A DNA stretch of 64,000 nucleotides from an uncultured Gammaproteobacteria bacterium (GTDB lineage Bacteria; Patescibacteriota; Patescibacteriia; SG8-24). A program made the position numbers and the translations under genes. Positions 10,297 to 33,137 of the stretch are shown here, piece after piece. The number at the start of each line of letters is the position of its first letter. Position 1 is the first letter of the stretch. The notes below the pieces were generated by a model. That model saw only the letters and a list, made by a program, of their open reading frames with translations. It was not told where the DNA came from and searched no databases. The stretch spans positions 699-64,698 of the forward strand of contig CAZAOV010000007.1 of NCBI GenBank assembly GCA_964486995.1, in the 5' to 3' direction.

Positions 10297-11405
10297 AATG
10301 GGGACGTATGGAAACTCCCTTCAAGCCAAAGGCGCGTGAAGTCATAGATCGGCTGTTCGGAATCGCCGTTGATCAAGGCGCCTCTGACCTTCATCTGGTG
10401 GTTAACAGGCCGCCGATTTTGCGTATAGGTGGACAGCTCACGCCAGTTAATGGCGCAGCCGTATTGAATGCAGAGAACGTTAAGCAGTTATGTTTTTCAA
10501 TTTTGACGGATGTTGAGCGCGAACGTTTTATTACCGAAAAAGAATTAGATGTCGCGCATCAAATTCCGTCCGGCAAGCGCTTCCGAATTAATTTGCATTG
10601 GGAAAGGGAGCATGTTGCAATGGCGGCTCGAACTATTCCGTCAGACATTCCGTCCATGAAAGATTTGGATCTGCCGCCGGTGGCGCACCAAATGGTTAAT
10701 TATCCGCATGGCTTGGTGCTGGTAACCGGACCGACCGGCGCCGGTAAGTCCACGACATTGGCGTCCATGATCGACAGCATCATAGATACTAAACCGGTTA
10801 ATGTGATTACCCTAGAAGATCCGATAGAGTTTTTGTTCGAATCTAAGACCGCAGTGGTTCGTCAGCGTCAGTTTGGTCAGGATTTTATAAGTTTTGAGGA
10901 AGGCCTGAAGCATATTTTACGCCAGGATCCGGATGTGGTGATGGTTGGTGAAATGCGTGACATGTCAACGATTTCCACCACGCTTACTATTGCCGAAACC
11001 GGTCACCTGGTATTCGCCACGTTGCACACCTACAGTGCGGCACAGACTATCGATCGTATTATCGACGCCTTTCCGGCGCATCAGCAGAATCAGATCAGAA
11101 CCCAGTTAGCGTTAACATTACGGGCGATTATCTCACAGCAGATGTTGCCTCAGACGGGCGGTGGTCGCGTAGCCTCGCGCGAGATTCTGGTGAATAACTA
11201 TGCCATTGCAAATCTGATACGTGACGGTAAGGTACAGCAGATTAATAACGTACTGCAGACATCCGTCGCCGATGGCATGACCACTCTCAGGCAGGATCTG
11301 AAACGTTTGGTTGAAATGAATCTGATTTCCGAGAAGACTGCTAGTGAGCATATTATCGGTGAAGCGAAATTGAATGAGGATGAAGAAGACGGTAAGAAAA
11401 AGTAG
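10290..11405 (+). CDS. pilT: Type IV pilus retraction ATPase PilT
   Basis: N-terminal ASDLHL...PPILRIGGQL, Walker A GPTGAGKSTT, Asp/His boxes; ~370 aa is the typical PilT size. Confidence 0.9.
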   Translation: MVEWGRMETPFKPKAREVIDRLFGIAVDQGASDLHLVVNRPPILRIGGQLTPVNGAAVLNAENVKQLCFSILTDVERERFITEKELDVAHQIPSGKRFRINLHWEREHVAMAARTIPSDIPSMKDLDLPPVAHQMVNYPHGLVLVTGPTGAGKSTTLASMIDSIIDTKPVNVITLEDPIEFLFESKTAVVRQRQFGQDFISFEEGLKHILRQDPDVVMVGEMRDMSTISTTLTIAETGHLVFATLHTYSAAQTIDRIIDAFPAHQQNQIRTQLALTLRAIISQQMLPQTGGGRVASREILVNNYAIANLIRDGKVQQINNVLQTSVADGMTTLRQDLKRLVEMNLISEKTASEHIIGEAKLNEDEEDGKKK

Positions 11406-11614
11406 ATATTTAGGTAATTGACAAATAGCCTTAAATGGGCTATTTTTGGTTAGGTGTTAGCGCTTCCGATATGGGGCAAGCTGCACCGCGTCGCAAGAAA
11501 TCATTTGCTCACCGTACTTATCGGTACGGCTCGCTGCATGATTCCTTGCGCCACGGCACATCTTACCCCATCTCGAAACCGCTTCACGTACTCGGCAAGA
11601 GGTTTACATATTAA

Positions 11615-11688
11615 GCGGGCGTAGTTCAACGGATAGAACGGCGGTTACGGAACCGTTAACGGGGGTTCGATTCCGTCTCGGGCGCTTC
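11615..11688 (+). pseudogene. Degenerate tRNA-Arg copy (6-nt anticodon loop, unpaired 3' acceptor strand)
   Basis: Identical to the tRNA-Arg at 11837 except loop TACGGA (6 nt) and 3' end CCGTCTCGGGCG, which cannot pair with the 5' GCGGGCG. Confidence 0.5.
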
Positions 11689-11836
11689 CGATATGGGGCA
11701 AGCTGCACCGCGTCGCAAGAAATCATTTGCTCACCGTACTTATCGGTACGGCTCGCTGCATGATTCCTTGCGCCACGGCACATCTTACCCCATCTCGAAA
11801 CCGCTTCACGTACTCGGCAAGAGGTTTACATATTAA

Positions 11837-11911
11837 GCGGGCGTAGTTCAACGGATAGAACGGCGGTCTTCGGAACCGTTAATGGGGGTTCGATTCCCTC
11901 CGCCCGCACCA
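11837..11911 (+). tRNA. tRNA-Arg (anticodon TCG) with encoded CCA
   Basis: Manual cloverleaf: acceptor GCGGGCG/CGCCCGC, D-arm GTTC-AACGGATA-GAAC, anticodon stem GCGGT/ACCGT with loop CTTCGGA, T-arm GGGGG-TTCGATT-CCCTC, discriminator A, CCA; followed by terminator AAAAAACCAACCATTCGGTTGGTTTTTT. Confidence 0.85.
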
Positions 11912-16206: not shown

Positions 16207-17919
16207 ATGAATATCTCTGACGAACAACTAAAGAGTTTATTGCTAAGCTCGGGGGTCATCGAAGAGTCAGATTTTAAGGTTGCCGAAGAGGTGGTCAAGA
16301 AAACCGGTCTCCCGATTGAACAGGTGCTGATATCCAAGCGCCTGATTCCTGATGCGTATTTGGGTGAGTTGGTTGCCGAAAAGTTGGGGTTAAAATTTGT
16401 CGATTTGAAATCAATCGAAATACCGAACCACGTGTTACGCCTGATTCCTGAGCGAACCGCAAAAAGGAAGCGAGCCATTGCCTTCGGCGCCAGTCTTTCG
16501 AGTGGTTTGAAGTTGGCCATGGCTGATCCGAGCGATTTGGAATTCATTAGGAACATGGAGAAAAAAACCGGCTTGCGCGCTCAGGCTTATTTTGCTACTA
16601 AGGCCGGAATTAACCACGGGCTGGAGTCGTACACTAAGGATTTGGAAAGCGCGATTCGTAGCCTTGAGGAAAAATATGCCGCATTGACGACCGGTCGGCG
16701 GAAGGGCGGCGGCGCCGAAGAAGAAAGTAAGATTGTCAGCGTCGTTGATTTGATTATGGATTATGCGTATCAGAACGACGCCTCCGACGTTCACATCGAG
16801 CCACGCGAAGATTCAGTGATGGTTCGTTATCGTGTTGACGGCATTTTGCATGACGTAGCCATACTACCGCGGGAGTACCTGTCTGCCGTCGTCACTCGTA
16901 TCAAAATTCTGTCTCGGTTGCGTACGGACGAACACTTTGCCGCGCAGGACGGAAAATTTCAGGAGCGGGTAAACGGCAATCGTATCGATGTCCGTGTATC
17001 TATTATTCCAATTGTCGAGGGAGAAAAGGTGGTTATGCGCCTGCTGTCGGAAAGGGGAAAGACCTATGAGCTAGAAAGTCTGGGACTGACGGAGGGCGAG
17101 ATAAAGGTGATCCGCAAACACTCGCGTAAATCTTTCGGCATGATTTTGTCGACTGGTCCGACTGGCTCCGGTAAGACCACATCCCTGTACGCAATTTTAA
17201 ATGAGCTGAATACTCGTCACGTAAATATTGCCACCATCGAGGATCCAATTGAGTACGCCATGGAAGGAGCAAATCAAATCCAGGTCAATCCGAAGGCTGG
17301 TCTGACTTTCGCCTCCGGCCTGCGTTCTATCGTGCGTCAGGATCCGGATATCGTGATGGTAGGAGAGATTCGTGATCCAGAGACTGCAAGCATCGCGGTG
17401 AATGCCGCCATGACTGGGCACTTGGTGCTTTCAACTCTGCACACCAACGATGCGGCGACTGCCTTGCCGCGCTTTCGAGAAATGGAAATTGAACCGTTTT
17501 TGATCGCCTCAACGATTAACGTAATCGTTGCCCAGCGGTTGGTGCGACGTCTTTGTCCGAGATGCGTAATGAGCGAGGTGGTTCCAACGAGTGAATTGAG
17601 GAATCTTATTTCTGAAGACGTCATCAAGAAGTTTTTTGCGGGTAGCGACGGCAAGATTAGAAAAAGTGCCAACCTGTATCGCGGCAAAGGATGCGACAGC
17701 TGTAACCATTCCGGCTATAGCGGACGAATCGGCATATTTGAAATTCTGGAAATGTCCGAACCGATACGGCAACTGGTGATGGGGAACGCAAATTCGCAGA
17801 CCATACAGAATCAAGCGAAAGCCGATGGAATGGTTACCATGCTCGAGAACGGCATTCAAAAGGCGCTAGAAGGTGTGACCACTATCGACGAGGTGTTGCG
17901 TGTTACCGGCGAAACCTAA
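16207..17919 (+). CDS. pilB: Type IV pilus assembly ATPase PilB (GspE family) with an N-terminal GSPII domain
   Basis: Walker A STGPTGSGKTTSLY, Asp/His boxes, tetracysteine CPRC...CDSC zinc motif; 570 aa. Confidence 0.92.
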   Translation: MNISDEQLKSLLLSSGVIEESDFKVAEEVVKKTGLPIEQVLISKRLIPDAYLGELVAEKLGLKFVDLKSIEIPNHVLRLIPERTAKRKRAIAFGASLSSGLKLAMADPSDLEFIRNMEKKTGLRAQAYFATKAGINHGLESYTKDLESAIRSLEEKYAALTTGRRKGGGAEEESKIVSVVDLIMDYAYQNDASDVHIEPREDSVMVRYRVDGILHDVAILPREYLSAVVTRIKILSRLRTDEHFAAQDGKFQERVNGNRIDVRVSIIPIVEGEKVVMRLLSERGKTYELESLGLTEGEIKVIRKHSRKSFGMILSTGPTGSGKTTSLYAILNELNTRHVNIATIEDPIEYAMEGANQIQVNPKAGLTFASGLRSIVRQDPDIVMVGEIRDPETASIAVNAAMTGHLVLSTLHTNDAATALPRFREMEIEPFLIASTINVIVAQRLVRRLCPRCVMSEVVPTSELRNLISEDVIKKFFAGSDGKIRKSANLYRGKGCDSCNHSGYSGRIGIFEILEMSEPIRQLVMGNANSQTIQNQAKADGMVTMLENGIQKALEGVTTIDEVLRVTGET

Positions 17920-17945: not shown

Positions 17946-19169
17946 ATGTCATTTAAATACACTGCCGCAAACAGAGAGGGCGAGGTTCTTCATGGGGAAT
18001 CTGATTTAGGTTCGCGCGATGCGGTTTTGGGACAAATCGAATCTCAGGGTTTGATTGCTATTTCGGTCGATGAAATTGCTGACAGGAAAGAAAAGAAAAA
18101 ATTGAGTGAAATTGGTTTTGGTCGCATCAGAAACGTTGACATACTGCTGTTCACCAAGCATCTGTCGGTGATGCTCAAGGCGGGCTTAACGCTATCCGGT
18201 GCGCTAAGGGCTCTGGTCGATCAGACCAAATCACCGAAGTTCAAAAAAGTTTTGGATAACGTTCGAGCGAGGGTTGAACGGGGTGAAGGTTTTTCTAATG
18301 CGTTAGAGAAGCACCATAAAGTATTTTCCCCGTTCTATGTGCATGTGGTTCGAGCCGGTGAGATATCCGGAACCCTGGAGGAAAATTTAGAGCATCTGGC
18401 CGGTCAGTACGTCAAGGATTACAACCTGCGCAAGCGTGTCCAATCTGCCATGCTGTACCCGGGAATTGTTTTTGGGGCAGCACTACTGATCGGTTTTTTC
18501 TTCGCCTCGTATGTCTTGCCGCAGGTGAATAGCATTTTCTCCGGATTGGGTGATATCGATTTGCCGTGGGTGACCGAATTGCTAATGGCCGTCTCTAATT
18601 TCATGAGTGATAATACGTTGATTTCATTCTTAATAATGGTTGGCGCGGTCGCATTCTTCTGGTGGCTATTGCACCAGAAGTTTATCCGTCCGACTACGCA
18701 CTGGCTGACTCTGCACTTGCCGATTGTCGGCGGAATTGCGAAGGAAGTGAATTTGGCGCGGTTTTCGTTGATTTTAGGGACCTTGCTTAAAAGCGGCAAC
18801 GATATCGTTCGTGCCCTCGAGATTACACGAGAAGTATTGGACAACATGTACTACAAGCGAGTTATTGCCGAAGCGCATCTAGAAATGCAGCGCGGAATAA
18901 ATCTTCGTGAAAGCCTTAAAAAAAACGAGGATCTGTTCCCGTCGGTGGTGACGCATATGATTGACGTTGGTGAGCAGTCTGGGGAGCTGGAGGAGGTGCT
19001 GAAGTATCTCGCCGAATTCTACGAACTGGAAATCGAATCAACGATGAAAAATTTATCATCCGTTTTGGAGCCGGTACTATTGCTTTTTATTGGTTTAGTG
19101 GCCATGGGGCTAGCCTATGCGATTCTCATTCCGATTTATAACTACATTTCGGCGATTAGTAGTATCTAA
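17946..19169 (+). CDS. pilC: Type IV pilus inner-membrane platform protein PilC (GspF family)
   Basis: SD AGGAGG. Two GspF repeats and 3 TM segments; 407 aa. Confidence 0.9.
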   Translation: MSFKYTAANREGEVLHGESDLGSRDAVLGQIESQGLIAISVDEIADRKEKKKLSEIGFGRIRNVDILLFTKHLSVMLKAGLTLSGALRALVDQTKSPKFKKVLDNVRARVERGEGFSNALEKHHKVFSPFYVHVVRAGEISGTLEENLEHLAGQYVKDYNLRKRVQSAMLYPGIVFGAALLIGFFFASYVLPQVNSIFSGLGDIDLPWVTELLMAVSNFMSDNTLISFLIMVGAVAFFWWLLHQKFIRPTTHWLTLHLPIVGGIAKEVNLARFSLILGTLLKSGNDIVRALEITREVLDNMYYKRVIAEAHLEMQRGINLRESLKKNEDLFPSVVTHMIDVGEQSGELEEVLKYLAEFYELEIESTMKNLSSVLEPVLLLFIGLVAMGLAYAILIPIYNYISAISSI

Positions 19170-19253: not shown

Positions 19254-19769
19254 TTGGACGCTCATACGCTTCAACGCTCACATGTTTTTATGTTCAATCA
19301 GGTTTCAAAAAACGGCAAGCAATATTTTGGCTTCACGGTCATCGAGGTCATAATAGCTGTTGCTCTATTGTTGAGCGCAGCGGCTTTGTCGGTTCCGTTT
19401 ATGTCCAGCACCCTATCGAGGAATGAACTGGATGTGGCATTACAGCGGGCTGTTGACATGCTAAACGAGGCCCGTTCATCCGCCTTCAATGGACTCGGCG
19501 GCGGTGAATTTGGGGTGCGTTTTGAGTCTGGGGCAGTGGTCTTTTTTTCCGGCGACACTTATTCAGCGGTTGATCCAGATAACGTTGATTTTATCTTGCC
19601 TGGATTTGTGAGCATTACCGACATAAGCATCAGCGGCGGCGGATCCGAGATTGTTTTCGAGAGCGTTTCCGGCGCGCCGACACAAACCGGCTCCGTCGAA
19701 TTCACTGATTCTTCCGGCGAGACAAAAACCGTGTCGGTAAACACTCACGGCACGGTGAATTTGGAATAA
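19254..19769 (+). CDS. Prepilin-type (class III signal peptide) pseudopilin/minor pilin
   Basis: Leader ...KNGKQYFG followed by FTVIEVIIAVALLL (G-1, E+5, hydrophobic helix). The real start is probably the internal ATG (MFNQ..., ~19296). Confidence 0.7.
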   Translation: MDAHTLQRSHVFMFNQVSKNGKQYFGFTVIEVIIAVALLLSAAALSVPFMSSTLSRNELDVALQRAVDMLNEARSSAFNGLGGGEFGVRFESGAVVFFSGDTYSAVDPDNVDFILPGFVSITDISISGGGSEIVFESVSGAPTQTGSVEFTDSSGETKTVSVNTHGTVNLE

Positions 19770-19771
19770 CC

Positions 19772-22732
19772 ATGTTTGTTCACAGAAATAAAATTTCTGC
19801 ACGTTTCGCTCGTTCCGGCATTTCGGTAATCGAGGTGCTTTTGGCGATAGCGATTTTTGGGGTGTTGGCCGCAAGCCTGATGATTTTGGTATGGGAGCCT
19901 TTGGTGTCTTCGAGCAGTGCGGCTCAGCGCGTGCAGGCCGTATTGTTGGCCGAAGAGGGGTTAGACGCCGCACGCTCGATTCGTAATGCGGACTGGTTGG
20001 CGCTCATTGACGGCGATCACGGAATAGATATTACCGGTGGGACTTGGGTCTTTTCTGGTACCAGCGACACGGACGGAACTTACATTCGGGTGGTCACCGT
20101 TGAGCCGGTTAGCCGAGACGTCTCTGGAGACATAACCGACACGGGCGGCACGCTGGATGCGAGAACAAAAAAAGTGACTTCGACGGTCAGCTGGGATTCG
20201 CCGTTCGGTGGCGATAAGTCGTTGTCATTCTCTACTTTTTTCACTAACTGGAACGTCATTGATTGGACGCAGGAAACTGACACGGACTTTGCCGGCGGCA
20301 TCAATAACGGCACTATCGTTACCGGCTTCGGAGACGCTGCCTATATCGAACTAGGTGCCGGCGGAGGTTCTGGTACATGGGACGTTTGGACCAGCTCATC
20401 CGTCACCCACACCACAGATGGAGATTTTTCGGCCGGAACACCGACCGACGTTACCGTGACCGGTGACGGAATTGAATTGAGTTCCGGCGGAATCGGTTCA
20501 TGGTCGGATTACGGTCTCGGTCCGGTAAGCGGGTCGTTGTACGGCATCGACATGGTTAGTTCATCAGACGGTTGGGTGTGCGGAGCGGGAGGGGCAATGA
20601 TTTCTTGGGACGGCAGCAGTTGGTCTGGATCAGAAAGCGTGGCCGGAACTAACACATATGCCGTTGATATGGTGTCTTCGACCAATGGCCATGCCGCTGG
20701 CGAGTGGAGCCTGCTTTATTCTTACAACGGGTCTTCTTGGTCATACGAGGGTTTTGATGTCCTGCAGAATATTACGGCTATCGGCATGGTCGATGGCAGT
20801 GACGGCTGGGCGGGCAGCAGTGGCGGTCGCGTCTTGCGGTGGGACGGGGCAGATTGGAATTTCTTCACCGATATTGGCGCAGAAGAAGTCGGGGACATTT
20901 ATATGCTTAGCACCAGCGACGGTTGGTTGGTTGCGCAGAACGGGCGAATTGAACGGTGGGACGGCTCCTCTTGGTCCGCATTTACTTCACCTACCTCGTC
21001 CTATCTGCGGGCAATCGACATGATTGATGCCAATGACGGCTGGGTGGTGGGTGATTCAGGCACTATTATTCGTTGGAATGGTTCCAGCTGGTCATCAGTT
21101 TCGTCTCCGACTTCTGATGACCTTTATGGCATATCGGTCGTAGCGTCAGATGACGTGTGGGCAGTGGGCGAAAGCGGCCGCATAATCCACTGGGACGGCT
21201 CTAGTTGGTCGAGTGTTTCTTCACCGACCAGCGAAAATCTTTACGACATTGCCATGGTTTCAAATGCAGACGGCTGGGCCGTTGGAGCCAACGGGACCAT
21301 TTTACGATTCGAACTTTCGTACGCTTCACCGGGCATACTAGAATCATCCGTCATCAATAGCGGTAAAACCGGAACCAGCTGGAGCCAGGTTTCCTGGACC
21401 GAGTCTTTACCTGCCGGAACCGATGTTACGGTGGCGTTTCGTTCTGGTGATACGGCAACACCGGACGGTAGTTGGTCGTCTTGGGGTTCGGAGGTCACGA
21501 ATGAAACCGGCAGCGCCGTCACCTCGTCCAGCTCTCAATATCTGCAATACCGTGTCACCATGACCACCAGTTCAATCGACACTCCGCGACTGGAGGACAT
21601 TACGGTTACGTATGACGAAGTGACCAGTAGCGATTTGTACGGTGTTGGCGGCAGCGCGGTGGATGACGTGTGGACAGTGGGTGAGTCCGGAACCTTATTG
21701 AACTATGACGGTTCGTCCTGGTCCAGCTTCAGTTCGCCGACCGGAAACGACATAAATGCCGTGGACGTACTGGCGTTCAATGACGCTTGGGCGGCGGCGG
21801 ACAGTGAGCAGTTCTTGAATTGGGACGGTTCCGCCTGGACCATAGTCAGCGATATCGGCAGCGGAACACTGAACGATATTGACTTGATTACGTCTTCGTC
21901 CGGTTGGGCAGTCGGTTCGGGCGAGGAATTCTTTGAATATGATGGCTCGTCATGGTCCGAGCTGTTCGATTTGGGCGAAGATACGCCCCAAGCCGTGTTT
22001 ATGCTTTCCGCCGTCGAGGGCTGGGCAGCCGGATCAAGCGAAAAATTTTATCGGTATGATGGTTTGTCATGGGCCGATTTTTCTGATTTGGGCGGCGAAA
22101 CCATTTACGACATTTACATGATTAGTTCGTCCGAGGGCTGGGCAGTCGGTTCGGGCGGCAAGTTTTACCGCTGGAACGGAACCGCCTGGTTCGAGTATGT
22201 GGACGTCGGCGGGGCTACGCTATACGGAGTGATAATGATTTCTGCGGTCGAGGGCTGGGCAGTCGGTTCGGGCGGCGCCCTGTACGAATGGGACGGCAAC
22301 TCATGGTCGTCTGTCGTTTCCGGAGTGACTGAAGATCTATATGACGTGTCCATTGTTTCGACGTCGCCGACGATTGCCTGGGCGGTGGGTGCGAACGGAA
22401 CTCTATTGAGTTTAACTGCCGGAGGTTCAGGAACCAGCGGCACTTACGAATCCAGTATTCTGGATACGGACAGCACCGATTCAATTTGGGAAACCATGTA
22501 TTTCGATGTCGTGCTGCCCAACGATTCCACCGCTACTGTTGCCTTGCGTTCCGGCGATACGCCAACACCGGACGGTAGCTGGGCGTCATGGAGTTCAGAG
22601 ATTTCAGTCACCTCTGGCACAGCGGTTCCGGTTTCCGGCGCTCGGTACCTGCAGTACCGCGTTACTCTAGAGAAAAATACCAGCCCCGATTCCCCGGAAT
22701 TTCACGGCATCACCATTACCTATACGCAATGA
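19772..22732 (+). CDS. Giant pilin-like protein (986 aa): prepilin N-terminus, ~12 beta-propeller-like WDGSSW repeats, and a twice-repeated ~110 aa C-terminal module
   Basis: N-terminus RSG/ISVIEVLLAIAIFGVLAASLMIL. Repeated ...DGWAVG..G.I..WDGSSWS... units of ~50 aa. Duplicated module (L/F)RSGDT.TPDGSW.SW.....G......YLQYRV at aa ~520-640 and ~870-986. Overlaps the next gene (ATGA). Confidence 0.8.
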   Translation: MFVHRNKISARFARSGISVIEVLLAIAIFGVLAASLMILVWEPLVSSSSAAQRVQAVLLAEEGLDAARSIRNADWLALIDGDHGIDITGGTWVFSGTSDTDGTYIRVVTVEPVSRDVSGDITDTGGTLDARTKKVTSTVSWDSPFGGDKSLSFSTFFTNWNVIDWTQETDTDFAGGINNGTIVTGFGDAAYIELGAGGGSGTWDVWTSSSVTHTTDGDFSAGTPTDVTVTGDGIELSSGGIGSWSDYGLGPVSGSLYGIDMVSSSDGWVCGAGGAMISWDGSSWSGSESVAGTNTYAVDMVSSTNGHAAGEWSLLYSYNGSSWSYEGFDVLQNITAIGMVDGSDGWAGSSGGRVLRWDGADWNFFTDIGAEEVGDIYMLSTSDGWLVAQNGRIERWDGSSWSAFTSPTSSYLRAIDMIDANDGWVVGDSGTIIRWNGSSWSSVSSPTSDDLYGISVVASDDVWAVGESGRIIHWDGSSWSSVSSPTSENLYDIAMVSNADGWAVGANGTILRFELSYASPGILESSVINSGKTGTSWSQVSWTESLPAGTDVTVAFRSGDTATPDGSWSSWGSEVTNETGSAVTSSSSQYLQYRVTMTTSSIDTPRLEDITVTYDEVTSSDLYGVGGSAVDDVWTVGESGTLLNYDGSSWSSFSSPTGNDINAVDVLAFNDAWAAADSEQFLNWDGSAWTIVSDIGSGTLNDIDLITSSSGWAVGSGEEFFEYDGSSWSELFDLGEDTPQAVFMLSAVEGWAAGSSEKFYRYDGLSWADFSDLGGETIYDIYMISSSEGWAVGSGGKFYRWNGTAWFEYVDVGGATLYGVIMISAVEGWAVGSGGALYEWDGNSWSSVVSGVTEDLYDVSIVSTSPTIAWAVGANGTLLSLTAGGSGTSGTYESSILDTDSTDSIWETMYFDVVLPNDSTATVALRSGDTPTPDGSWASWSSEISVTSGTAVPVSGARYLQYRVTLEKNTSPDSPEFHGITITYTQ

Positions 22733-25700
22733 AGCGAGCCAAACAAAATAATAATCGCGGTATCGCCTTGCTGGAATTGATTATCTATCTGGGTCTGCTT
22801 GGCTTTGTACTTTCGGCAATGGTCATGTTTTCGGTCGAGTTTGCGGCCACCCACGCCAAGTCCGCGGCACTGGCCGAATCGGCGCGCAATACCAAGTTTG
22901 CAGTGACGAGAATCGCGTATGAGGTGCGTCGGGCCGAGTCCATCGACTACGACAACTCAACTCTCGATACCAGTCCGTCTGTCCTGACGCTTGAAACTTC
23001 CAATCCGTCCACCAATCCAACCGTTATTTCAGTGGTCGAAAATCAGCTGATGATGAGTCAGGGTGGGGGAGCGGATATTCCGCTCACGCCATCGCAAGTC
23101 GAGGTGGAGGATTTTACGATTATAAACGTGGCCGACACGACTCGCAGTCGGTCGATTCGGGTTGCGCTCACGTTGGGTATTGTCGAGTCGGGCAGCTTGG
23201 AAGAGTTTTCGGGAGTAACTTCCTACATGACTACGGTGCGGGTTTGGAAAGACGATGGCTATAACACCGAGGGCACACCACCGACTCCGACACCGACCTA
23301 TGGCCAGTCGGCATATCGCTTCTTTGCCAACGACGATTCCACTGATGTCGGCGCTCCGTTGGCGGCTCAAGATTCAGCCGCCGCACTTTCTTCCGATGGC
23401 AATCCGTTCCGTTTGCGTATGATGGTGGATGTTGATACCGCAACGGTGGCGACCAGCGCAGCCTCGTTCAAGCTGCAATTCGCGGAGAAGTCTGGCGCTT
23501 GCGATACCTATTTTGTTGGCGAGTCCTACGAAGACGTAACCGCGATTTCCGATATCGCCTATAACGACAACTCTCCCTCAGATGGCGTGGCGCTAAATGC
23601 CAACGCTAATGATCCGGTGCGAGCCGGCCGAACGTCCGTTGCGCAAACGTATGAGGAAGCCAATAATCTGACCAACTCGAATCAGATTTTGGCTGGTCAG
23701 ACCGGATTATGGGACTTTGCGCTAATTGACAACGACGGCACGGACGAAAAAGAATATTGTTTCCGTTTGGTGCACTCCAGCGATTCTCAGCTTAATGACT
23801 ATTCGGTCGTGCCGGAAATTTCCACGGCCGCTGGTTCCACCACCGATGTTTTCCGCGTCACCGAATATTACATTACCGCCGGAGAGTTTAGCGGGGACAC
23901 CTATGACCTTACGCTGGACCAGGCTTTGGCTTCCAACTATTTTACGATTATTCGCGGCAGCGACGGTAGCGGCACGGGCGGCGGCAATCGTGGCCCTGAT
24001 GAAAATTATGTTTCTTTGACCGCTGACCCGTTCGGAACGGGGGAACTGGTACCGTCTTCCGGTTCGGATGTACTGCAACTCACTCGCCATAATTCGGTTG
24101 ACGGTTGGCAGGGAGTGGTAACGGTAGCGGAGTGCCTAGGCAACTGTTCGACTTCCGGATTTGAATTACTGGACGTGCGTCGCGTGGTACATTCCGGCAC
24201 CTCTACCGGCGGCACAGAGACAGCAGGAGCCAGCTGGTCAGATATTGATCAAGTTATGCTGCTTGGCGGCTACAATGGCGCGGGCTGTGACAGTATCGAG
24301 ACCGATTCAGGCAGCCATCACAGCTGTCACGTTCGTCTTTGGCCGTCAGGCAGCAACCAAATATTTTGGACCAGAAATAGTTTGGGCGGTTTGATGACCG
24401 CAACTTCTACGGTACAGGTGCTGGAGTGGGGGAGCGACTGGACGGTGCAAAGACGCACGGTGACCGGAAGCTCCGGCGGCGACGGTGCCGATCAGTTGAC
24501 CGAGTATGATCGTACGGCCATCAGTTCGGTAAATCGTGACGCCACTTGGGTGTGGGGCACTGGGCATACGAGCGAAAGCGGAACTGGTGACAGCGCCGAA
24601 GCGTCGCTGATTACATTGGGTGACGGAGTTAACCTGAACTCGTCCGAATCTTGGGTGTCCGTCGGTCAAGAGGTCGATTGGGCAAACAAAGAATTCGAGG
24701 TGTATGCGCTGACTCATCCGAGCTTGATGGTTGATTACCGCTTCAAGCCGGACGGAAACGAGAGTGACCTGACCTATGATCAGGCGGTTAATTCGGCTAC
24801 GGCCGGCCTGCGGATGTCAGTGGCTTACAACGGGTCTGACGGTTCCGGCTCGCAGTACCCGCGGCCCATCTTCTCGACTCGGTATGCTTCCGATACATCT
24901 GTTCGTATGGAGCGCCGGCGTGTCGGCGCAGAATTCCCAGCTTGGATTCAGGGTATAGACTTTTCCAATATTATGGCTGGAGGTGGTCCGCCACCGAGTG
25001 CCACGTTGACTCAGTCGGCCTATCGTATATTCGATAACGACGATTCTACCGATGTGGGTGCACCCTTGGCAGCGCAAGATACAGCCGCCACCCTAACCGC
25101 AAATGAAAGTGAGTTTAGGCTTCGCTATTTGCTGGGTATCGACACGTTCGGGCTATCGATGTCAGGGGAGAGCCTTAAACTTCAGTACGCCACCAAGTCG
25201 GGTACGTGCGATACCGCATTTGCGGATGAAAGTTATGCTGACGTGACTGGCGCCACAGCCATTGCCTTCGCCGATAACTCGCCGTCCGATGGTGTCGCGC
25301 TGACCGAAAACGCGAACGACCCGGTGAGCGGTGGCCGAACAACGATCGCTCAAACATATGAAGAGAATAATAATCACACTAACACGACGGCTATCGCCAA
25401 CGGTGAGGCCGGGTTGTGGGATTTCGCCCTGGTTGACAACGACGGATTAAACGCCGCCGACTATTGTCTGCGTGTGGTGCGTTCTGACGGCAGTCTGCTC
25501 GACACCTATTCGGTTATCCCAGAAGTCTCAACGGTCTCCGGATGCGGAGTGATTTTTAGCGACGATTTCGAAGACGGCGATGCTTCTGACTGGGTACATA
25601 CTTGGGATAGCGGTGTCGATTGGAACGTGGTTGATGTCGGCGGAAACAATGTCTATGAAAACACCAGCTCAACCTACTCGCAGACCCAAGCCCCTTCATT

Positions 25701-28395
25701 TGGCGATGATGATTACGTTTATACGGGGCAGTTTACGATCAGCAATTATGGTATCCACGGATTTATTTTCCGTTATCAGGATGACAGTAATTTTTGGCGT
25801 CTAGTGTTTGAGTTTGGTCAGGTTCTGATTCGCGGTCAGGTGGGTGGGTCCTGGACAAATGCGGCCGGGCAGTCGGTAATCAATTGGTCTCCGACCGTCG
25901 GCACGACGTATAACATCAAGGTCAAAGCTGAAGGCAGTCAACTGGACGGAAAGTGGTGGGAAGACGGGACCGCCGAACCGGGTTCGTGGATGATTTCTGC
26001 CAATGACAGTCAGATATTGACTGGCTATGCGGGCGTGAGCAATCGTGACGGCACGCAGTTCGATAGTCTGTCCGTCACTACCTGCCTGACCGATCCGGTG
26101 ACTGGGTCGGTCACCGTAATTGACCCGAACGGCAATGATTCACTTATTGCTGGTTCGAACTATGAAATCCTGTGGAGCTCGTCGGACACTTCTGGCAATG
26201 TCGATATTGAATATTCGACCGACAATTTCGTTGCCGACATTAATTCGATTGCCAACAGCACGGCAGATGACGGAAGCTACTTTTGGACCGTTCCAAGCCT
26301 GGACAGTTCAACGGTGCGCGTGCGCATCAGCGACTCGGCCGATGCTGGCGTGACCGACACAAGCGACGCGGACTTCGAGATTTCCATGCCGCCGAGCGTC
26401 ACCGTAACCGACCCGAACGGCGGCGAGTCGCTCACTTCCGGTGACAGTTTTAATATCACCTGGATATCCATTAATTCCTCCGGATTCGTAGATATCGAGT
26501 ATTCAACCGACAATTTTGTTACCGATATAAATACGATAGTTGCCGGAACAGCCGATGACGGAATCCATGCCTGGAACGTGCCTGCTCTGGACAGTTCCAC
26601 CGTGCGCGTGCGCGTAACCGATGCGTTCTACGCCGGAATTGCAGATACGAGCGACGCGGACTTCAGCATCGCCACGCCGAGCACTGTCACGGTGACCGAC
26701 CCGAACGGCGGCGAGTCGCTCACTTCCGGTGACAGCTTTAATACCACCTGGACCTCCAACAACACCTCGGGCACGGTTGATATCGAATACTCCACCGACA
26801 ACTTTGTGTCCGATATCAATTCGATAGTTGTCGGAACCCTCGATGACGGTCTTTATGGCTGGACCGTTCCGAGTTTGGACAGCTCGACCGTACGCGTACG
26901 CGTTACCGACTCGGCCGATCCCGGCGTGACCGACACCAGCGACGCGGACTTCAGCATCGCCACGCCGAGCACTGTCACCGTGACCGACCCGAACGGCGGC
27001 GAGTCGTTAAACTCACAAGATTCATTCGACGTTACCTGGACCTCCAACAACACCTCGGGCACGGTTGATATCGAATACTCCACCGACAACTTTGTGTCCG
27101 ATATCAATTCGATAGTTGTCGGAACCCTCGATGACGGTCTTTATGGCTGGACCGTTCCGAGTTTGGACAGCTCGACCGTACGCGTACGCGTTACCGACTC
27201 GGCCGATCCCGGCGTGACCGACACCAGCGACGCGGACTTCAGCATCTCTACACAACCTACGTTCCGGGTAACCGAATACTACGTCACCAACAGTCAATTC
27301 AATCAGCAATCATACACCCTAACGCTCGACCAGGACTTAGAATCAAATTATTTTGTTATCGTCCGCGGCAGTGACGGTGACGGCAGCGGCAATGGCCATC
27401 GTGGTCCGGACGAGAACTACGCGGCATTGGCGGCTGACCCGTTTGGTACCGGTGATTTGAGCGATTCCGGTGCGTCAAACCAGATTGATCTTACCAGGCG
27501 GGGTGACACAGATGGCTGGCAGGGGGTAGTCACCGTAGTTGAATGCTTGGGCGACTGCGACTCGTCTGGCTTCGAACTGATTGGAGTCGAAGAGGTTACA
27601 CATTCTGGCAGTAGTACCGGCGGACAAGATACGTCCTCAGTTTCCTGGACCGACATCAATCAAATCATGCTGGTCGGCGGATTTTATGGCGCTGGCTGCA
27701 ACACCGATGAAAGCGACCATGTAGATCATGTCAGTTGCTTCGCCAAGATTTGGCCGGGCGGAACCAATGAAATTAATTGGTCCAGAGATGTCGGCGGCAA
27801 TAGTTCCCTGAGCACGGCCACCAGCACGGTCATGGTCATGGAGTGGGGGAGCGAATGGAACGTCCAGCGAGTTGATGTTGTCGGCAATAACGGCGGCAAC
27901 GGCGCGGACAGCACCGGCGAATACGACACGGCCAGCATCTCACCGGTGGCTCGGGTCAACACCTGGGTTTGGGGAACCGGTCACGTGGACGATGACGGTA
28001 TCGGCGATTCGGCCGAGGGGTCATTGGTTACGCTGGGCAACGGCGTGAACCAAAACGCCACCGAGTCGCAAGTAGCCGTAGGCAGTGAATACGGTGACGA
28101 CAAGGACTATGTGGTATATGCGCTAACGCACCCAGGCCTAGCGGTAGATTATTTCTTCAAGACCGACGGTCAAAGAGGCGATTTAACCAATGACGCGTCG
28201 GTTGATTCGGCGCCGGCCGGCAGTCGTATGGCGTTGGCCTATAACGGCTGTAACGGCACGGGACATGCTTATCCGAGGCCGATATTCTCGGCGCGATATT
28301 TATCGGACACGTTTATCCGCATGGAGCGGCTTCGGTCCGGTCAGGCATTTCCAGCTTGGATTCAGGGCATCGACTTTAGCGAGATAAAACATTAG
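22729..28395 (+). CDS. Giant pilin-like protein (~1888 aa): prepilin N-terminus; domains A-B, then A', a LamG/ConA-like domain, 4 tandem ~96 aa Ig-like repeats, and B'
   Basis: Start MKRAKQNNNRG/IALLELIIYLGLLGFV (class III signal). ORF track begins further upstream at 22588 inside the previous gene. Internal duplication of a ~190 aa domain (YRFFANDDSTDVGAPLAAQD... x2) and a ~370 aa domain (FRVTEYY...AWIQGIDFS x2). WRLVFEFGQVLIRG region consistent with a LamG-like fold. Confidence 0.8.
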   Translation: MKRAKQNNNRGIALLELIIYLGLLGFVLSAMVMFSVEFAATHAKSAALAESARNTKFAVTRIAYEVRRAESIDYDNSTLDTSPSVLTLETSNPSTNPTVISVVENQLMMSQGGGADIPLTPSQVEVEDFTIINVADTTRSRSIRVALTLGIVESGSLEEFSGVTSYMTTVRVWKDDGYNTEGTPPTPTPTYGQSAYRFFANDDSTDVGAPLAAQDSAAALSSDGNPFRLRMMVDVDTATVATSAASFKLQFAEKSGACDTYFVGESYEDVTAISDIAYNDNSPSDGVALNANANDPVRAGRTSVAQTYEEANNLTNSNQILAGQTGLWDFALIDNDGTDEKEYCFRLVHSSDSQLNDYSVVPEISTAAGSTTDVFRVTEYYITAGEFSGDTYDLTLDQALASNYFTIIRGSDGSGTGGGNRGPDENYVSLTADPFGTGELVPSSGSDVLQLTRHNSVDGWQGVVTVAECLGNCSTSGFELLDVRRVVHSGTSTGGTETAGASWSDIDQVMLLGGYNGAGCDSIETDSGSHHSCHVRLWPSGSNQIFWTRNSLGGLMTATSTVQVLEWGSDWTVQRRTVTGSSGGDGADQLTEYDRTAISSVNRDATWVWGTGHTSESGTGDSAEASLITLGDGVNLNSSESWVSVGQEVDWANKEFEVYALTHPSLMVDYRFKPDGNESDLTYDQAVNSATAGLRMSVAYNGSDGSGSQYPRPIFSTRYASDTSVRMERRRVGAEFPAWIQGIDFSNIMAGGGPPPSATLTQSAYRIFDNDDSTDVGAPLAAQDTAATLTANESEFRLRYLLGIDTFGLSMSGESLKLQYATKSGTCDTAFADESYADVTGATAIAFADNSPSDGVALTENANDPVSGGRTTIAQTYEENNNHTNTTAIANGEAGLWDFALVDNDGLNAADYCLRVVRSDGSLLDTYSVIPEVSTVSGCGVIFSDDFEDGDASDWVHTWDSGVDWNVVDVGGNNVYENTSSTYSQTQAPSFGDDDYVYTGQFTISNYGIHGFIFRYQDDSNFWRLVFEFGQVLIRGQVGGSWTNAAGQSVINWSPTVGTTYNIKVKAEGSQLDGKWWEDGTAEPGSWMISANDSQILTGYAGVSNRDGTQFDSLSVTTCLTDPVTGSVTVIDPNGNDSLIAGSNYEILWSSSDTSGNVDIEYSTDNFVADINSIANSTADDGSYFWTVPSLDSSTVRVRISDSADAGVTDTSDADFEISMPPSVTVTDPNGGESLTSGDSFNITWISINSSGFVDIEYSTDNFVTDINTIVAGTADDGIHAWNVPALDSSTVRVRVTDAFYAGIADTSDADFSIATPSTVTVTDPNGGESLTSGDSFNTTWTSNNTSGTVDIEYSTDNFVSDINSIVVGTLDDGLYGWTVPSLDSSTVRVRVTDSADPGVTDTSDADFSIATPSTVTVTDPNGGESLNSQDSFDVTWTSNNTSGTVDIEYSTDNFVSDINSIVVGTLDDGLYGWTVPSLDSSTVRVRVTDSADPGVTDTSDADFSISTQPTFRVTEYYVTNSQFNQQSYTLTLDQDLESNYFVIVRGSDGDGSGNGHRGPDENYAALAADPFGTGDLSDSGASNQIDLTRRGDTDGWQGVVTVVECLGDCDSSGFELIGVEEVTHSGSSTGGQDTSSVSWTDINQIMLVGGFYGAGCNTDESDHVDHVSCFAKIWPGGTNEINWSRDVGGNSSLSTATSTVMVMEWGSEWNVQRVDVVGNNGGNGADSTGEYDTASISPVARVNTWVWGTGHVDDDGIGDSAEGSLVTLGNGVNQNATESQVAVGSEYGDDKDYVVYALTHPGLAVDYFFKTDGQRGDLTNDASVDSAPAGSRMALAYNGCNGTGHAYPRPIFSARYLSDTFIRMERLRSGQAFPAWIQGIDFSEIKH
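26746..27240 (+). repeat. Near-identical ~288 bp tandem repeat inside the giant pilin (Ig-like repeats 3 and 4), ~210 bp of perfect nucleotide identity
   Basis: acctggacctccaacaacacctcgggcacggttgatatcgaatactccaccgac...gacttcagcatc occurs twice, 288 bp apart. Repeats 1-2 (26390..26690) are more diverged. Confidence 0.8.
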
Positions 28396-28397
28396 AT

Positions 28398-28820
28398 ATG
28401 ATAATTATCAAACCAGCGCAAAATACTGATAGGGGAGCCGTCGCTTTGATTACGGTAATTGTTTTAGGCTCGTTACTGCTTATACTCGGTCTGTCCGCTT
28501 CTTACGTTGGGCAGACAGAAATAATTATCGCCGGCCAGATGGACCGGGGTCAGCATGCTCGCACTCTAGCCGCTACATGTATTGAGGAAGCGCTGCATCG
28601 TCTCAAACTAGATGATGCATATGCAGGAGGAACGATTGATATTGATTCCGATTCTTGCGCAGTTACGATTATCGGCGCCGGTTCATCACGTACTATCACC
28701 AGCACGGCCATCTCGGGGGATTTTACCAAGAACATCGAAGTCATCGCTTCCCTAAGGCAAAATGCCGATACCGATGCCTCGGCATGGAACATAGATTCGT
28801 GGACTGAGTTAGACCCGTAA
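28398..28820 (+). CDS. PilX-N-like minor pilin
   Basis: N-terminus ...TDRGAVALITVIVLGSLLLILGLSASY resembles the PilX_N family (RGxALxxxLLLLxxLxxLG); 140 aa. Confidence 0.55.
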   Translation: MIIIKPAQNTDRGAVALITVIVLGSLLLILGLSASYVGQTEIIIAGQMDRGQHARTLAATCIEEALHRLKLDDAYAGGTIDIDSDSCAVTIIGAGSSRTITSTAISGDFTKNIEVIASLRQNADTDASAWNIDSWTELDP

Positions 28821-31732: not shown

Positions 31733-31809
31733 AACATAGATTATTAACTATCCATTAAGCAATTAATCGGGCATATAATTGTCCTGATGCTATAAATTAA
31801 ACAGTAAAT

Positions 31810-32400
31810 ATGAAGCGCAATAACAAAGGTTTTACCCTAGTCGAGCTCCTAATCGTCATCGGCATCATCGGTTTTCTGGCCGCAGCCATCTTGGTGGCGG
31901 TCGACCCGGTCAAGCGTATCCAGGACTCACGCAACTCCCAGCGCTGGTCAGAGGTCAACTCAATCCTGAACGCGGTGCTGAAGAAGCAGGTTGATGATCG
32001 GGCTCTGTATAACGGCGACTCAGCGGCACCCATCATCACCAGTGCCGACTATGCTCAGGTCATTGTCGAGGATGCAACCGATATAGTTTGTAATGTCGAG
32101 AGTACTCGACCCGGTTGCGATACAGCTTTGGATGTAAGCGCGGCGGACGCCGACTGCGTGGCGCAGCTTTTCGAAAATACTTCTCCGGGCACAGAACATC
32201 TTAATCCGACCTACTTGGCTGAAATGCCAACCGATCCCGGTGATGCCACCTGTCTGGATAGCGGAGACTGCACAGCGTTTGGTGACATTGTCATTGGTGA
32301 TTCGAATAGCGGTTATTATATCAAGCGAAGCACCGGCAACCGAATCGAGATTGGCGCATGTCAGCCGGAGCAGGGCGCTACCATCAGCGTCAAGCGATAG
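31810..32400 (+). CDS. pilA: Type IV major pilin (PilA-like), copy 1
   Basis: MKRNNKG/FTLVELLIVIGIIGFLAAAILVAV class III signal; 196 aa with 4 Cys in the C-terminal D-region; followed by terminator ATCCCGCTCCGTCTGAGCGGGAT-T5. Confidence 0.85.
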   Translation: MKRNNKGFTLVELLIVIGIIGFLAAAILVAVDPVKRIQDSRNSQRWSEVNSILNAVLKKQVDDRALYNGDSAAPIITSADYAQVIVEDATDIVCNVESTRPGCDTALDVSAADADCVAQLFENTSPGTEHLNPTYLAEMPTDPGDATCLDSGDCTAFGDIVIGDSNSGYYIKRSTGNRIEIGACQPEQGATISVKR

Positions 32401-32424
32401 CAATCAAATAGCGTGAATAAAAAA

Positions 32425-32453
32425 ATCCCGCTCCGTCTGAGCGGGATTTTTGT
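32425..32453 (+). terminator. Rho-independent terminator after pilin copy 1
   Basis: ATCCCGCTC-CGTCT-GAGCGGGAT followed by TTTTTGTTT. Confidence 0.65.
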
Positions 32454-32531
32454 TTACTTATGGTGTCGGACTGAAATAGATGCTAAAATATGAATACACC
32501 ATAAAGAAATCTCTCTAAACAAGATTTAAAT

Positions 32532-33137
32532 ATGAAGCGCAATAACAAAGGTTTTACCCTAGTCGAGCTCCTAATCGTCATCGGCATCATCGGTTTTCTG
32601 GCCGCAGCCATCTTGGTGGCGGTCGACCCGGTCAAGCGTATCCAGGACTCACGCAACTCCCAGCGCTGGTCAGAGGTCAACTCAATCCTGAACGCGGTGC
32701 TGAAGAAGCAGGTTGATGATCGGGCTCTGTATAATGGTGATACCGATGTCGCACCTGGCGATGGAGCCCAAATCATTACTCACGCCTCTAATGTGCAAGT
32801 CATCGTTTCGGACGTGACAGGTATAAGCTGTGACGCACCAGCAAATCGACCAGGCTGCAATCAGACAATGGATACCACGGCGGGAAGGAATTGCGTTGCT
32901 AAACTCTTTGATCCGGACACGGCCGATCAAGATGATGAGCATTTGAATCCGAACTATATGGCCGAGATGCCGCTCGATCCGGCCGAAAATGCCTGCGCCA
33001 GCGGCTGTACAACTCTTGGTAACTTAGCTATCGGAGATACCAACAGCGGCTACTACATTCACCGTACCACCGGCAACCGAATCGAGATTGGCGCCTGTCA
33101 GCCGGAGCAGTCGGCAACCATATCCGTGAAGCGCTAA
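32532..33137 (+). CDS. pilA: Type IV major pilin (PilA-like), copy 2: 5' 203 bp identical to copy 1, conserved 3' block, divergent middle
   Basis: Nucleotides 32532..32734 identical to 31810..32012. Shared 3' accggcaaccgaatcgagattggcgcNtgtcagccggagcag. Central ~120 codons homologous but highly diverged. Terminator CCCCGCCCTCACTGGGCGGGG-T4 at 33163..33188. Confidence 0.85.
   Translation: MKRNNKGFTLVELLIVIGIIGFLAAAILVAVDPVKRIQDSRNSQRWSEVNSILNAVLKKQVDDRALYNGDTDVAPGDGAQIITHASNVQVIVSDVTGISCDAPANRPGCNQTMDTTAGRNCVAKLFDPDTADQDDEHLNPNYMAEMPLDPAENACASGCTTLGNLAIGDTNSGYYIHRTTGNRIEIGACQPEQSATISVKR

Follow-up and report, generated by a model that had tools for sequence, protein, structure and literature searches.

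Modular pilins occur widely, and an exposed position at the tip of the type IV pilus (T4P) has been proposed for them (PMC8179133). In Streptococcus sanguinis, the module carried by PilB is of the vWA type, while that of PilC is a ConA-like lectin module (Raynaud et al. 2021, PMC8179133; Shahin et al. 2023, PMC9934059). The largest modular pilin in the 2021 survey has 860 amino acids (PMC8179133). Here we describe giant pilin 2, a predicted protein of 1,888 amino acids encoded on the plus strand of a 64,000-nucleotide stretch of contig CAZAOV010000007.1 (GenBank assembly GCA_964486995.1, positions 699 to 64,698). This stretch is referred to below as the window, and coordinates are those of the window unless another locus is named. 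We consider it about two-thirds probable (0.65) that giant pilin 2 is an adhesin of a Patescibacteria T4P, namely a modular minor pilin located at the tip, and that an identical tract in its repeat array results from recent recombination, most likely gene conversion.

Like PilB and PilC of S. sanguinis, giant pilin 2 joins an N-terminal pilin module to grafted non-pilus modules, one of them ConA-like; its gene also lies among those of minor pilins, and a tip-exposed adhesin role is likewise presumed. Modular pilins are defined by a pilin module together with at least one non-T4P domain, and giant pilin 2 has such domains in its PF10342 repeat array and its ConA-like module L. However, PilB and PilC have one extra module each, whereas giant pilin 2 has nine beyond the pilin module. 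Unlike the S. sanguinis proteins, it also contains modules (A and B) that lack a database signature, and it comes from an uncultured, ultrasmall Patescibacterium.

Attachment to other microbes is the way of life of Patescibacteria, and type IV pili are their best-supported host-binding organelles. Minor pilins of the Saccharibacterium TM7x that bear a jelly-roll or propeller module are regarded as candidate adhesins for host binding; when pilX2 is deleted, host binding falls by half (PMC11623550). PilX1 (jelly roll) and PilX2 (beta-propeller) resemble giant pilin 2 in being minor pilins with large accessory domains encoded in a Patescibacteria T4P locus, and a role as lectin-like adhesins at the tip has been proposed for them. 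Giant pilin 2, with its jelly roll, and its propeller-like neighbour, giant pilin 1, mirror this pair in domain type. Both TM7x proteins are far smaller than giant pilin 2, and no PilD signal peptide is predicted in either, whereas giant pilin 2 has the G/E+5 motif. Repeat arrays have not been described for PilX1 or PilX2.

The tandem domains of Periscope Proteins are so nearly identical that recombination can take place within the gene and the stalk can vary in length (PMC8201768). Giant pilin 2 shares with these and other fibrillar adhesins (SasG, Rib, Sgo_0707, CdrA; PMC8201768, PMC9210967) a stalk of tandem Ig-like domains and a distal module. As proposed for Periscope adhesins, the DNA identity of adjacent repeats could allow recombination and a change in repeat number. 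The differences are that Periscope and fibrillar adhesins have their anchor in the cell wall or the outer membrane, whereas giant pilin 2 would sit in a pilus, and that Periscope arrays comprise many units of very high identity, whereas only two units are homogenised here. The PilY1/PilC tip adhesins of diderm T4P are also large modular adhesins associated with a minor-pilin tip complex. PilY1, however, falls outside the pilins, its defining feature being the IPR008707 propeller domain, and giant pilin 2 yielded no match to a propeller domain of this type. Giant pilin 2 is an unusually large case of the known modular pilins and periscope-like adhesins, and current understanding stands.

Gene, protein and prepilin N-terminus

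The open reading frame (ORF) that ends at 28395 is open from 22588 on the plus strand. The ATG at 22729 shares an ATGA with the stop codon of the upstream pilin-like ORF of 986 amino acids, and residues are numbered from this start in the following list.

22729..28395, plus strand: coding sequence of giant pilin 2 (modular type IV minor pilin), 1,888 amino acids; the start codon overlaps the upstream stop
22729..23298, plus strand: pilin module N (residues 1-190) with leader MKRAKQNNNRG, Glu at +5 and a hydrophobic helix
23305..23841, plus strand: module A (residues 193-371), beta-sandwich without a Pfam family, 61% identical to A'
23851..24978, plus strand: module B (residues 375-750), all-beta, about 375 amino acids, without a Pfam family, 60% identical to B'
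25012..25548, plus strand: module A' (residues 762-940), predicted beta-sandwich
25549..26109, plus strand: module L (residues 941-1127), ConA-like jelly roll of the DUF1080 / 3-keto-disaccharide hydrolase type, assigned by transitive homology
26110..27261, plus strand: four tandem Ig-like repeats, R1-R4 (residues 1128-1511), of 288 bp or 96 amino acids each, from repeat finding and Pfam PF10342
26110-26397, plus strand: repeat R1, in-register unit
26398-26685, plus strand: repeat R2, in-register unit
26686-26973, plus strand: repeat R3, in-register unit
26974-27261, plus strand: repeat R4, in-register unit
26746..26958, plus strand: identical tract, copy 1 (R3, unit positions 61-273), 213-bp exact run at lag 288
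27007..27033, plus strand: patch of R4 spared homogenisation (unit nucleotides 34-60), 18 of 27 positions mismatched to R3
27034..27246, plus strand: identical tract, copy 2 (R4, unit positions 61-273), 213-bp exact run at lag 288
27262..28395, plus strand: module B' (residues 1512-1888) and stop codon, C-terminal and hence distal, predicted all-beta

The module order N, A, B, A', L, four Ig-like repeats and B', which the first-pass annotation had proposed from the letters of the sequence, is borne out by BLASTP comparison of the segments.

The protein read from the ATG at 22729 begins MKRAKQNNNRG/IALLELIIYLGLLGF, the slash marking the predicted cleavage site. Its leader is of the prepilin type, being short and basic with Gly at position -1 (MKRAKQNNNRG/IALLELIIYLGLLGFVLSAMV). 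The mature N-terminus, IALLE..., has a hydrophobic residue at +1 and Glu at +5, followed by a hydrophobic helix of about 20 amino acids, and G/IALLE is a class III motif. Pilin module N is 47% identical to the N-terminus of a syntenic orthologue (P0002) in another Patescibacteria genome, and the named best homologues of the whole protein are Patescibacteria proteins. Four pilin-like genes lie in a row (171, 986, 1,888 and 140 amino acids), that of giant pilin 2 being the third; they sit between genes for PilB and PilC upstream and those for a PilM fusion and two small pilins downstream. Four minor pilins beside assembly genes are the usual layout of a pilus-priming tip complex (GspH-K, FimU-PilVWX). 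By its N-terminal motif and gene context, giant pilin 2 is most likely a type IV pilin; its cleavage, N-methylation and incorporation into the pilus are predicted.

A homogenised core in the repeat array

The four Ig-like repeats of 96 amino acids that had been noticed earlier are recovered by repeat finding, and PF10342 (the Kre9/KNH-like Ig-like domain) matches the four-repeat segment in four stretches at 42.8 bits, above its cutoff of 24.6. A single unit scores 17.4 bits against the same model, which is under the cutoff. Tandem Repeats Finder reports the 288-bp period from 26299 to 27246. A profile of the repeat gave no match in the PDB. Short Pro/Thr-rich linkers (ATPST, MPPS) are at most suggestive of an elongated rod that would project a functional domain.

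R3 and R4 are 90.3% identical in nucleotides and R2 and R3 79.9%, the remaining pairs lying between 66 and 72%. The near-identity of R3 and R4 extends over only 74% of the unit: there are no differences in the 213 nucleotides of the core and 28 in the 75 nucleotides of the flanks (Fisher p = 5e-19). This core is the longest exact run at lag 288 in the array. The first-pass annotation had put it at about 210 bp with the same period, which is correct (213 bp exactly), but its end lies at 27246 and not at 27240. At a background identity of 80%, the chance of a run of 213 nucleotides is about 2e-21. Since synonymous sites are also identical within the tract, its identity is attributed to recency and not to constraint on the protein, and it is best read as the footprint of very recent homologous recombination inside the gene. 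The same annotation invoked either slipped-strand or recombinational change at the repeat. Slipped-strand mispairing is not the expected mechanism for units of 288 bp; homologous recombination across the 213-bp tract is.

What the mosaic records

R3 is a mosaic of its two neighbours. Its positions 1-60 are closest to R2 (4 mismatches), positions 61-273 to R4 (0 mismatches, as against 54 to R2) and positions 274-288 again to R2 (0 mismatches, as against 9 to R4). Positions 1-33 of R4 likewise match R2 and R3. In contrast, positions 34-60 of R4 differ from each other unit at 17-20 of 27 sites. The peptide encoded by this patch is nearly that of R2 and R3 (LNSQDSFDV versus LTSGDSFNT), yet all amino acids it has in common with R3 are recoded, for example Leu as CTC/TTA and Ser as AGC/TCA. 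The mismatches exceed a 25% background (binomial p = 6e-6). The patch has either survived from a much older unit or been imported from elsewhere.

Gene conversion between neighbouring units most likely accounts for this pattern and fits it better than a simple duplication does, because a single unequal crossover wrongly predicts that R3 and R4 are the same at positions 34-60. A conversion tract would have overwritten the core of one stalk unit with that of its neighbour, and R3 and R4 therefore appear to evolve in concert. There is nothing unusual in such concerted evolution of neighbouring repeats in a surface adhesin.

Another possibility, which we regard as unlikely though it accounts for part of the mosaic, is that R3 is a recent product of unequal crossing-over in an array of three units (R1-R2-R4), the identity then marking a gain in copy number. 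The tail of R3 (274-288) is indeed that of R2 and its core that of R4, as expected if R4 and R2 were misaligned and the crossover fell in the shared positions 253-273. Moreover, the number of Ig-like units varies among distant orthologues (0, 1 and 4). However, birth of a new unit in this way predicts that R3 equals R4 throughout positions 1-273, whereas 18 of 27 sites differ at positions 34-60, where R3 matches R2. A second, short conversion event would have to be added, and the model then has no advantage in simplicity over conversion alone.

Reliability of the reading and of the assembly

Several points weigh against the interpretation of giant pilin 2 as a tip-located pilin with a recently converted tract. 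The Pfam N_methyl model (PF07963) matches the protein with E = 0.004 and 17.0 bits, under its cutoff of 21.2, and neither TIGR02532 nor any other NCBIfam model matches at E <= 0.01. It must be noted that N-methylation models are very short and that divergent minor pilins often score under their cutoffs. No prepilin peptidase gene was identified within the 64-kb window. Modules A and B are without known function or close solved fold. Tip location, adhesion and ligand are attributed to giant pilin 2 from analogy alone, and an ongoing change in copy number is a prediction from the sequence. Finally, the gene is known from a single assembly, so that both the identity and the count of four units rest on one contig; a contig passing twice through one collapsed node would show 100% identity.

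This last point leads to the question of the assembly. The first-pass annotation had warned that identical repeats are a common site of collapse, and the warning is valid: an exact repeat of 213 bp is beyond the usual maximum assembly k-mer. The copy number is a lower bound, because it is set by the traversals of the collapsed node. Perfect identity and copy number could thus both be assembly-dependent. An outright artefact would arise if a collapsed 213-bp node had been traversed twice or too few times, or through bubble popping between near-identical copies. A short-read core longer than usual k-mers is a single looped node, and its copies would be 100% identical by construction, since the core is then one graph node traversed twice. 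The exact protein is recorded once, on a single NCBI contig of 64,895 bp, a related gene (P0003) is truncated by a contig end, and the window contains three perfect local repeats of 186-213 bp. Against this, the junction from R3 to R4 is unique: bases specific to R3 and R4 run up to position 252 and are followed by 41 shared bases and then by the R4-specific head. Because such a junction requires a spanning k-mer in the reads, at least two cores are real unless k is below about 47. In addition, the head of R3 has single-nucleotide differences of its own (positions 6, 9, 51 and 59), and a repeat of this kind is also present in the orthologue from an independent metagenome-assembled genome (MAG). 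On balance, we doubt that the tract is an artefact. For annotators the caution is a general one, since genes of this type are where short-read MAG assemblies are least reliable.

Function and length variation

The small N-terminal pilin module would anchor giant pilin 2 in the pilus. From this anchor the grafted chain would extend through A, B, A' and the ConA-like, lectin-type jelly roll, and the stalk of four Ig-like repeats would hold the second B module, B', at the far end. A tip placement is argued because 1,700 amino acids of appended domains hardly fit elsewhere in a pilus, a reasoning already applied to modular pilins at large (PMC8179133). By analogy with the pilins described above, the protein may bind a glycan or the host surface. 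With its nine grafted modules, variable orthologues and fresh recombination scars, giant pilin 2 is a reasonable candidate for a host-specificity determinant.

The 213-bp tract is long enough that unequal recombination could add or remove a unit of 96 amino acids in frame, and the sequence makes variation in repeat copy number, and hence in length, plausible. Gain or loss of a unit would change the distance of B' from the pilus tip. It had been suggested that the repeat number would vary the length of a surface fibre. This does not hold, because fibre length is set by polymerisation of the major pilin; what would be altered is how far the distal B' module of one tip subunit reaches.

A stronger proposal is that length is switched at high frequency in a programmed manner, as in Periscope Proteins, so as to tune the projection of a terminal binding module. 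The elements of that logic are present, namely tandem folded domains, high DNA identity and a distal module (PMC8201768), and the gene family is plastic in module content. However, the definition of Periscope Proteins calls for long repeats of high identity that differ in number from one related strain to another, whereas near-identity in giant pilin 2 is confined to two of the four units and to 74% of their length, and the other pairs of units are 66-80% identical. We therefore find programmed switching improbable.

Least probable of all is that the identity is kept by nucleotide-level selection on an embedded RNA or DNA element, or that the units form the template and variable regions of a diversity-generating retroelement (DGR): the 213-bp tract is an in-frame protein core without a separate feature, the mismatches between units have no adenine bias, and the differences sit at unit edges, whereas a DGR target would have them in a variable region at the C-terminus. 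That Patescibacteria commonly carry DGRs is no specific support in this case. The DGR target reading is rejected on the mismatch spectrum, which lacks the adenine specificity of such elements.

More speculatively, the giant tip pilins of Patescibacteria might as a class be recombination-driven host-recognition proteins, whose portable binding modules, the widespread A and B among them, are continually reshuffled and resized by conversion and unequal crossing-over. We are sceptical of so broad a generalisation. If it were true, it would mean rapid host-range change in obligate episymbionts, and the tandem major-pilin pair of this locus would vary by the same mechanism.

Modules A, B and L

Segment BLASTP aligns A with A' at 61% identity (E = 5e-78) and B with B' at 60% identity (E = 2e-152). 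Modules A and B have no sequence match in Pfam, NCBIfam or the PDB, profiles included. Structure prediction is nonetheless confident. For A', the predicted beta-sandwich has a predicted local distance difference test score (pLDDT) of 95.6 and a predicted template-modelling score (pTM) of 0.90, and the best PDB matches found by Foldseek are generic E-set or Ig-like sandwiches with template-modelling (TM) scores of at most 0.43. For B' (pLDDT 91.3, pTM 0.92), Foldseek returns nothing close, with TM scores of at most 0.31 in the PDB and in the BFVD viral models. Module B may represent a new fold. It carries four conserved Cys and many invariant Trp, Gly and Arg residues. The motif of module A is QSAYRxF.N.DSTDVG...FRLR...KLQ...NDP...TYEE.NNF...WDF.L...YCFR.

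The duplicated appearance of the protein had been noted in the first-pass annotation. The pairs A/A' and B/B' do exist, but they are not recent duplicates. Each partner copy ranks only 2nd to 7th closest, behind modules of other genomes, and neighbour-joining trees pair B with B' only on long branches; this identity ranking and the long branches led us to reject recent internal duplication of either pair. Because the copies are about 60% identical, and as diverged from each other as from copies in other genomes and even other phyla, A/A' and B/B' appear to be old duplicates.

Module L had been labelled LamG-like. The label holds at the level of the superfamily, that of the ConA-like fold, but there is no direct LamG match and the predicted family type is that of PF06439. 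A scan of 25591-26109 gave no Pfam match even at E <= 10, the LamG models PF02210 and PF13385 included, and a word-indexed homologue search with module L alone returned zero matches. In contrast, an exhaustive search of representative proteins, with E-values computed against 1.8 billion proteins, yielded 507 homologues. Module L aligns to residues 92-250 of one of them, P0241, with E = 4.4e-8, and residues 94-261 of that protein match PF06439 at 63.3 bits (cutoff 26.8), Laminin_G matches being weaker. PF06439 was matched in only 2 of the 10 module L homologues scanned. Since the aligned region of P0241 is a bona fide PF06439 domain, module L is predicted, by transitive homology, to be a ConA-like jelly roll.

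Orthologues and spread of the modules

The pilus locus is syntenic with loci in two other Patescibacteria genomes, L001 (GCA_034716415.1, JAYEJB010000064.1) and L002 (GCA_043804985.1), and the flanking proteins are 55-83% identical to their L001 counterparts. The L001 orthologue of giant pilin 2, P0002, has the architecture N-A5-B, without L and without any Ig-like repeat. P0003, truncated as mentioned above, reads ...A-L-R1-A (with an inserted LamG domain)-B and has one Ig-like repeat. In P0012, which bears the Joint Genome Institute (JGI) name of prepilin-type protein, the order is pilin-B-other. No relative of giant pilin 2 above about 60% identity was found in the collections searched, and for the region of L and the repeats, searches of genome and metagenome contigs gave only distant Ig-repeat proteins of other phyla (26-51% identity) in place of close relatives.

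Within the P0002 gene lies a perfect repeat of 800 bp, in frame and at lag 1107, which corresponds to two A units (10736-11535 and 11843-12642 of L001) and is the sole long perfect repeat in the 24-kb L001 locus. It reflects an independent recent duplication or conversion, or else an assembly issue. The gene family appears to be recombination-prone, since the orthologue differs in module content and has this perfect repeat of its own. The same may be said of the locus, because of the 800-bp repeat and the 208-bp identity between its tandem pilin genes (see below).

Modules A and B are also found in non-pilin proteins of other phyla. In a census that covered 120 homologues, module A occurs in 1-10 copies in more than 100 giant proteins from many lineages (P0005-P0120). 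Its carriers include DUF6701/MshQ-like proteins of Betaproteobacteria, and others are labelled Elusimicrobia, Nitrospiria and Aenigmatarchaeota. Module B is present in about 30 C25-peptidase-like proteins of Acidobacteriota, 2,500-3,100 amino acids long, at 50-65% identity (P0007-P0044), so that B is as similar to the Acidobacteriota copies as it is to B' within giant pilin 2. Such conservation across phyla is unusually high for an unannotated extracellular module. Both modules are abundant, well conserved and confidently foldable, and their description would better the annotation of hundreds of giant surface proteins from several phyla. What is worth keeping from this analysis is the unannotated modules A and B, together with the view of Patescibacteria tip pilins as hot spots of intragenic recombination.

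The pilus locus

The pilus genes around giant pilin 2 are as follows.

16207-17919, plus strand: PilB-like extension ATPase (Pfam T2SSE, E = 2e-126)
17946-19169, plus strand: PilC-like platform protein (Pfam T2SSF, E = 4e-57)
19254-19769, plus strand: GspH-like minor pilin, 171 amino acids, pilin-like, upstream of the giant pilins
19772-22732, plus strand: giant pilin 1, 986 amino acids, with BNR/propeller-like repeats
28398..28820, plus strand: pilin-like protein without Glu5, 140 amino acids, N-terminus ...TDRG/AVALITVIVLGSLLL; same position in L001 and L002
29087..31732, plus strand: PilM-fusion assembly protein (Pfam PilM_2, E = 4e-30; TIGR01175)
31810..33137, plus strand: two tandem candidate major pilins of 196 and 201 amino acids, TIGR02532 above cutoff

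The N-terminus of giant pilin 1 is pilin-like, with weak GspI and PilV matches, and its repeats are diverged units of 39 amino acids (117 nucleotides) of the BNR/Ycf48-like propeller type. Its orthologue in L001 has 1,400 amino acids, which indicates that length varies between genomes.

The tandem small pilin genes (31810-32400 and 32532-33137) have identical 5' ends over 208 bp, 31805-32012 being the same as 32527-32734. The tract covers 5 nucleotides upstream and codons 1-68 of each gene. Beyond it the C-terminus is conserved and the middle differs, and the two proteins are 73% identical overall. The pair looks like a case of gene conversion or of recent duplication with a variable exposed region. 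The L001 counterparts of the two genes have no such shared tract.

Farther upstream lie genes for a PilT-like ATPase, a histidine kinase and two response regulators, and the surrounding genes are of the housekeeping type (RNase III, ProRS, YmdB, RNase Y, TruB and IF-2). The window also contains a 186-bp perfect direct repeat at lag 222 (11460-11645 and 11682-11867). The first copy terminates in a stub resembling a tRNA (11615 to about 11690), for which neither ARAGORN nor Rfam gives a tRNA call; the repeated sequence covers the region upstream of tRNA-Arg(TCG) (11837-11911) and the first 31 or so nucleotides of that gene.

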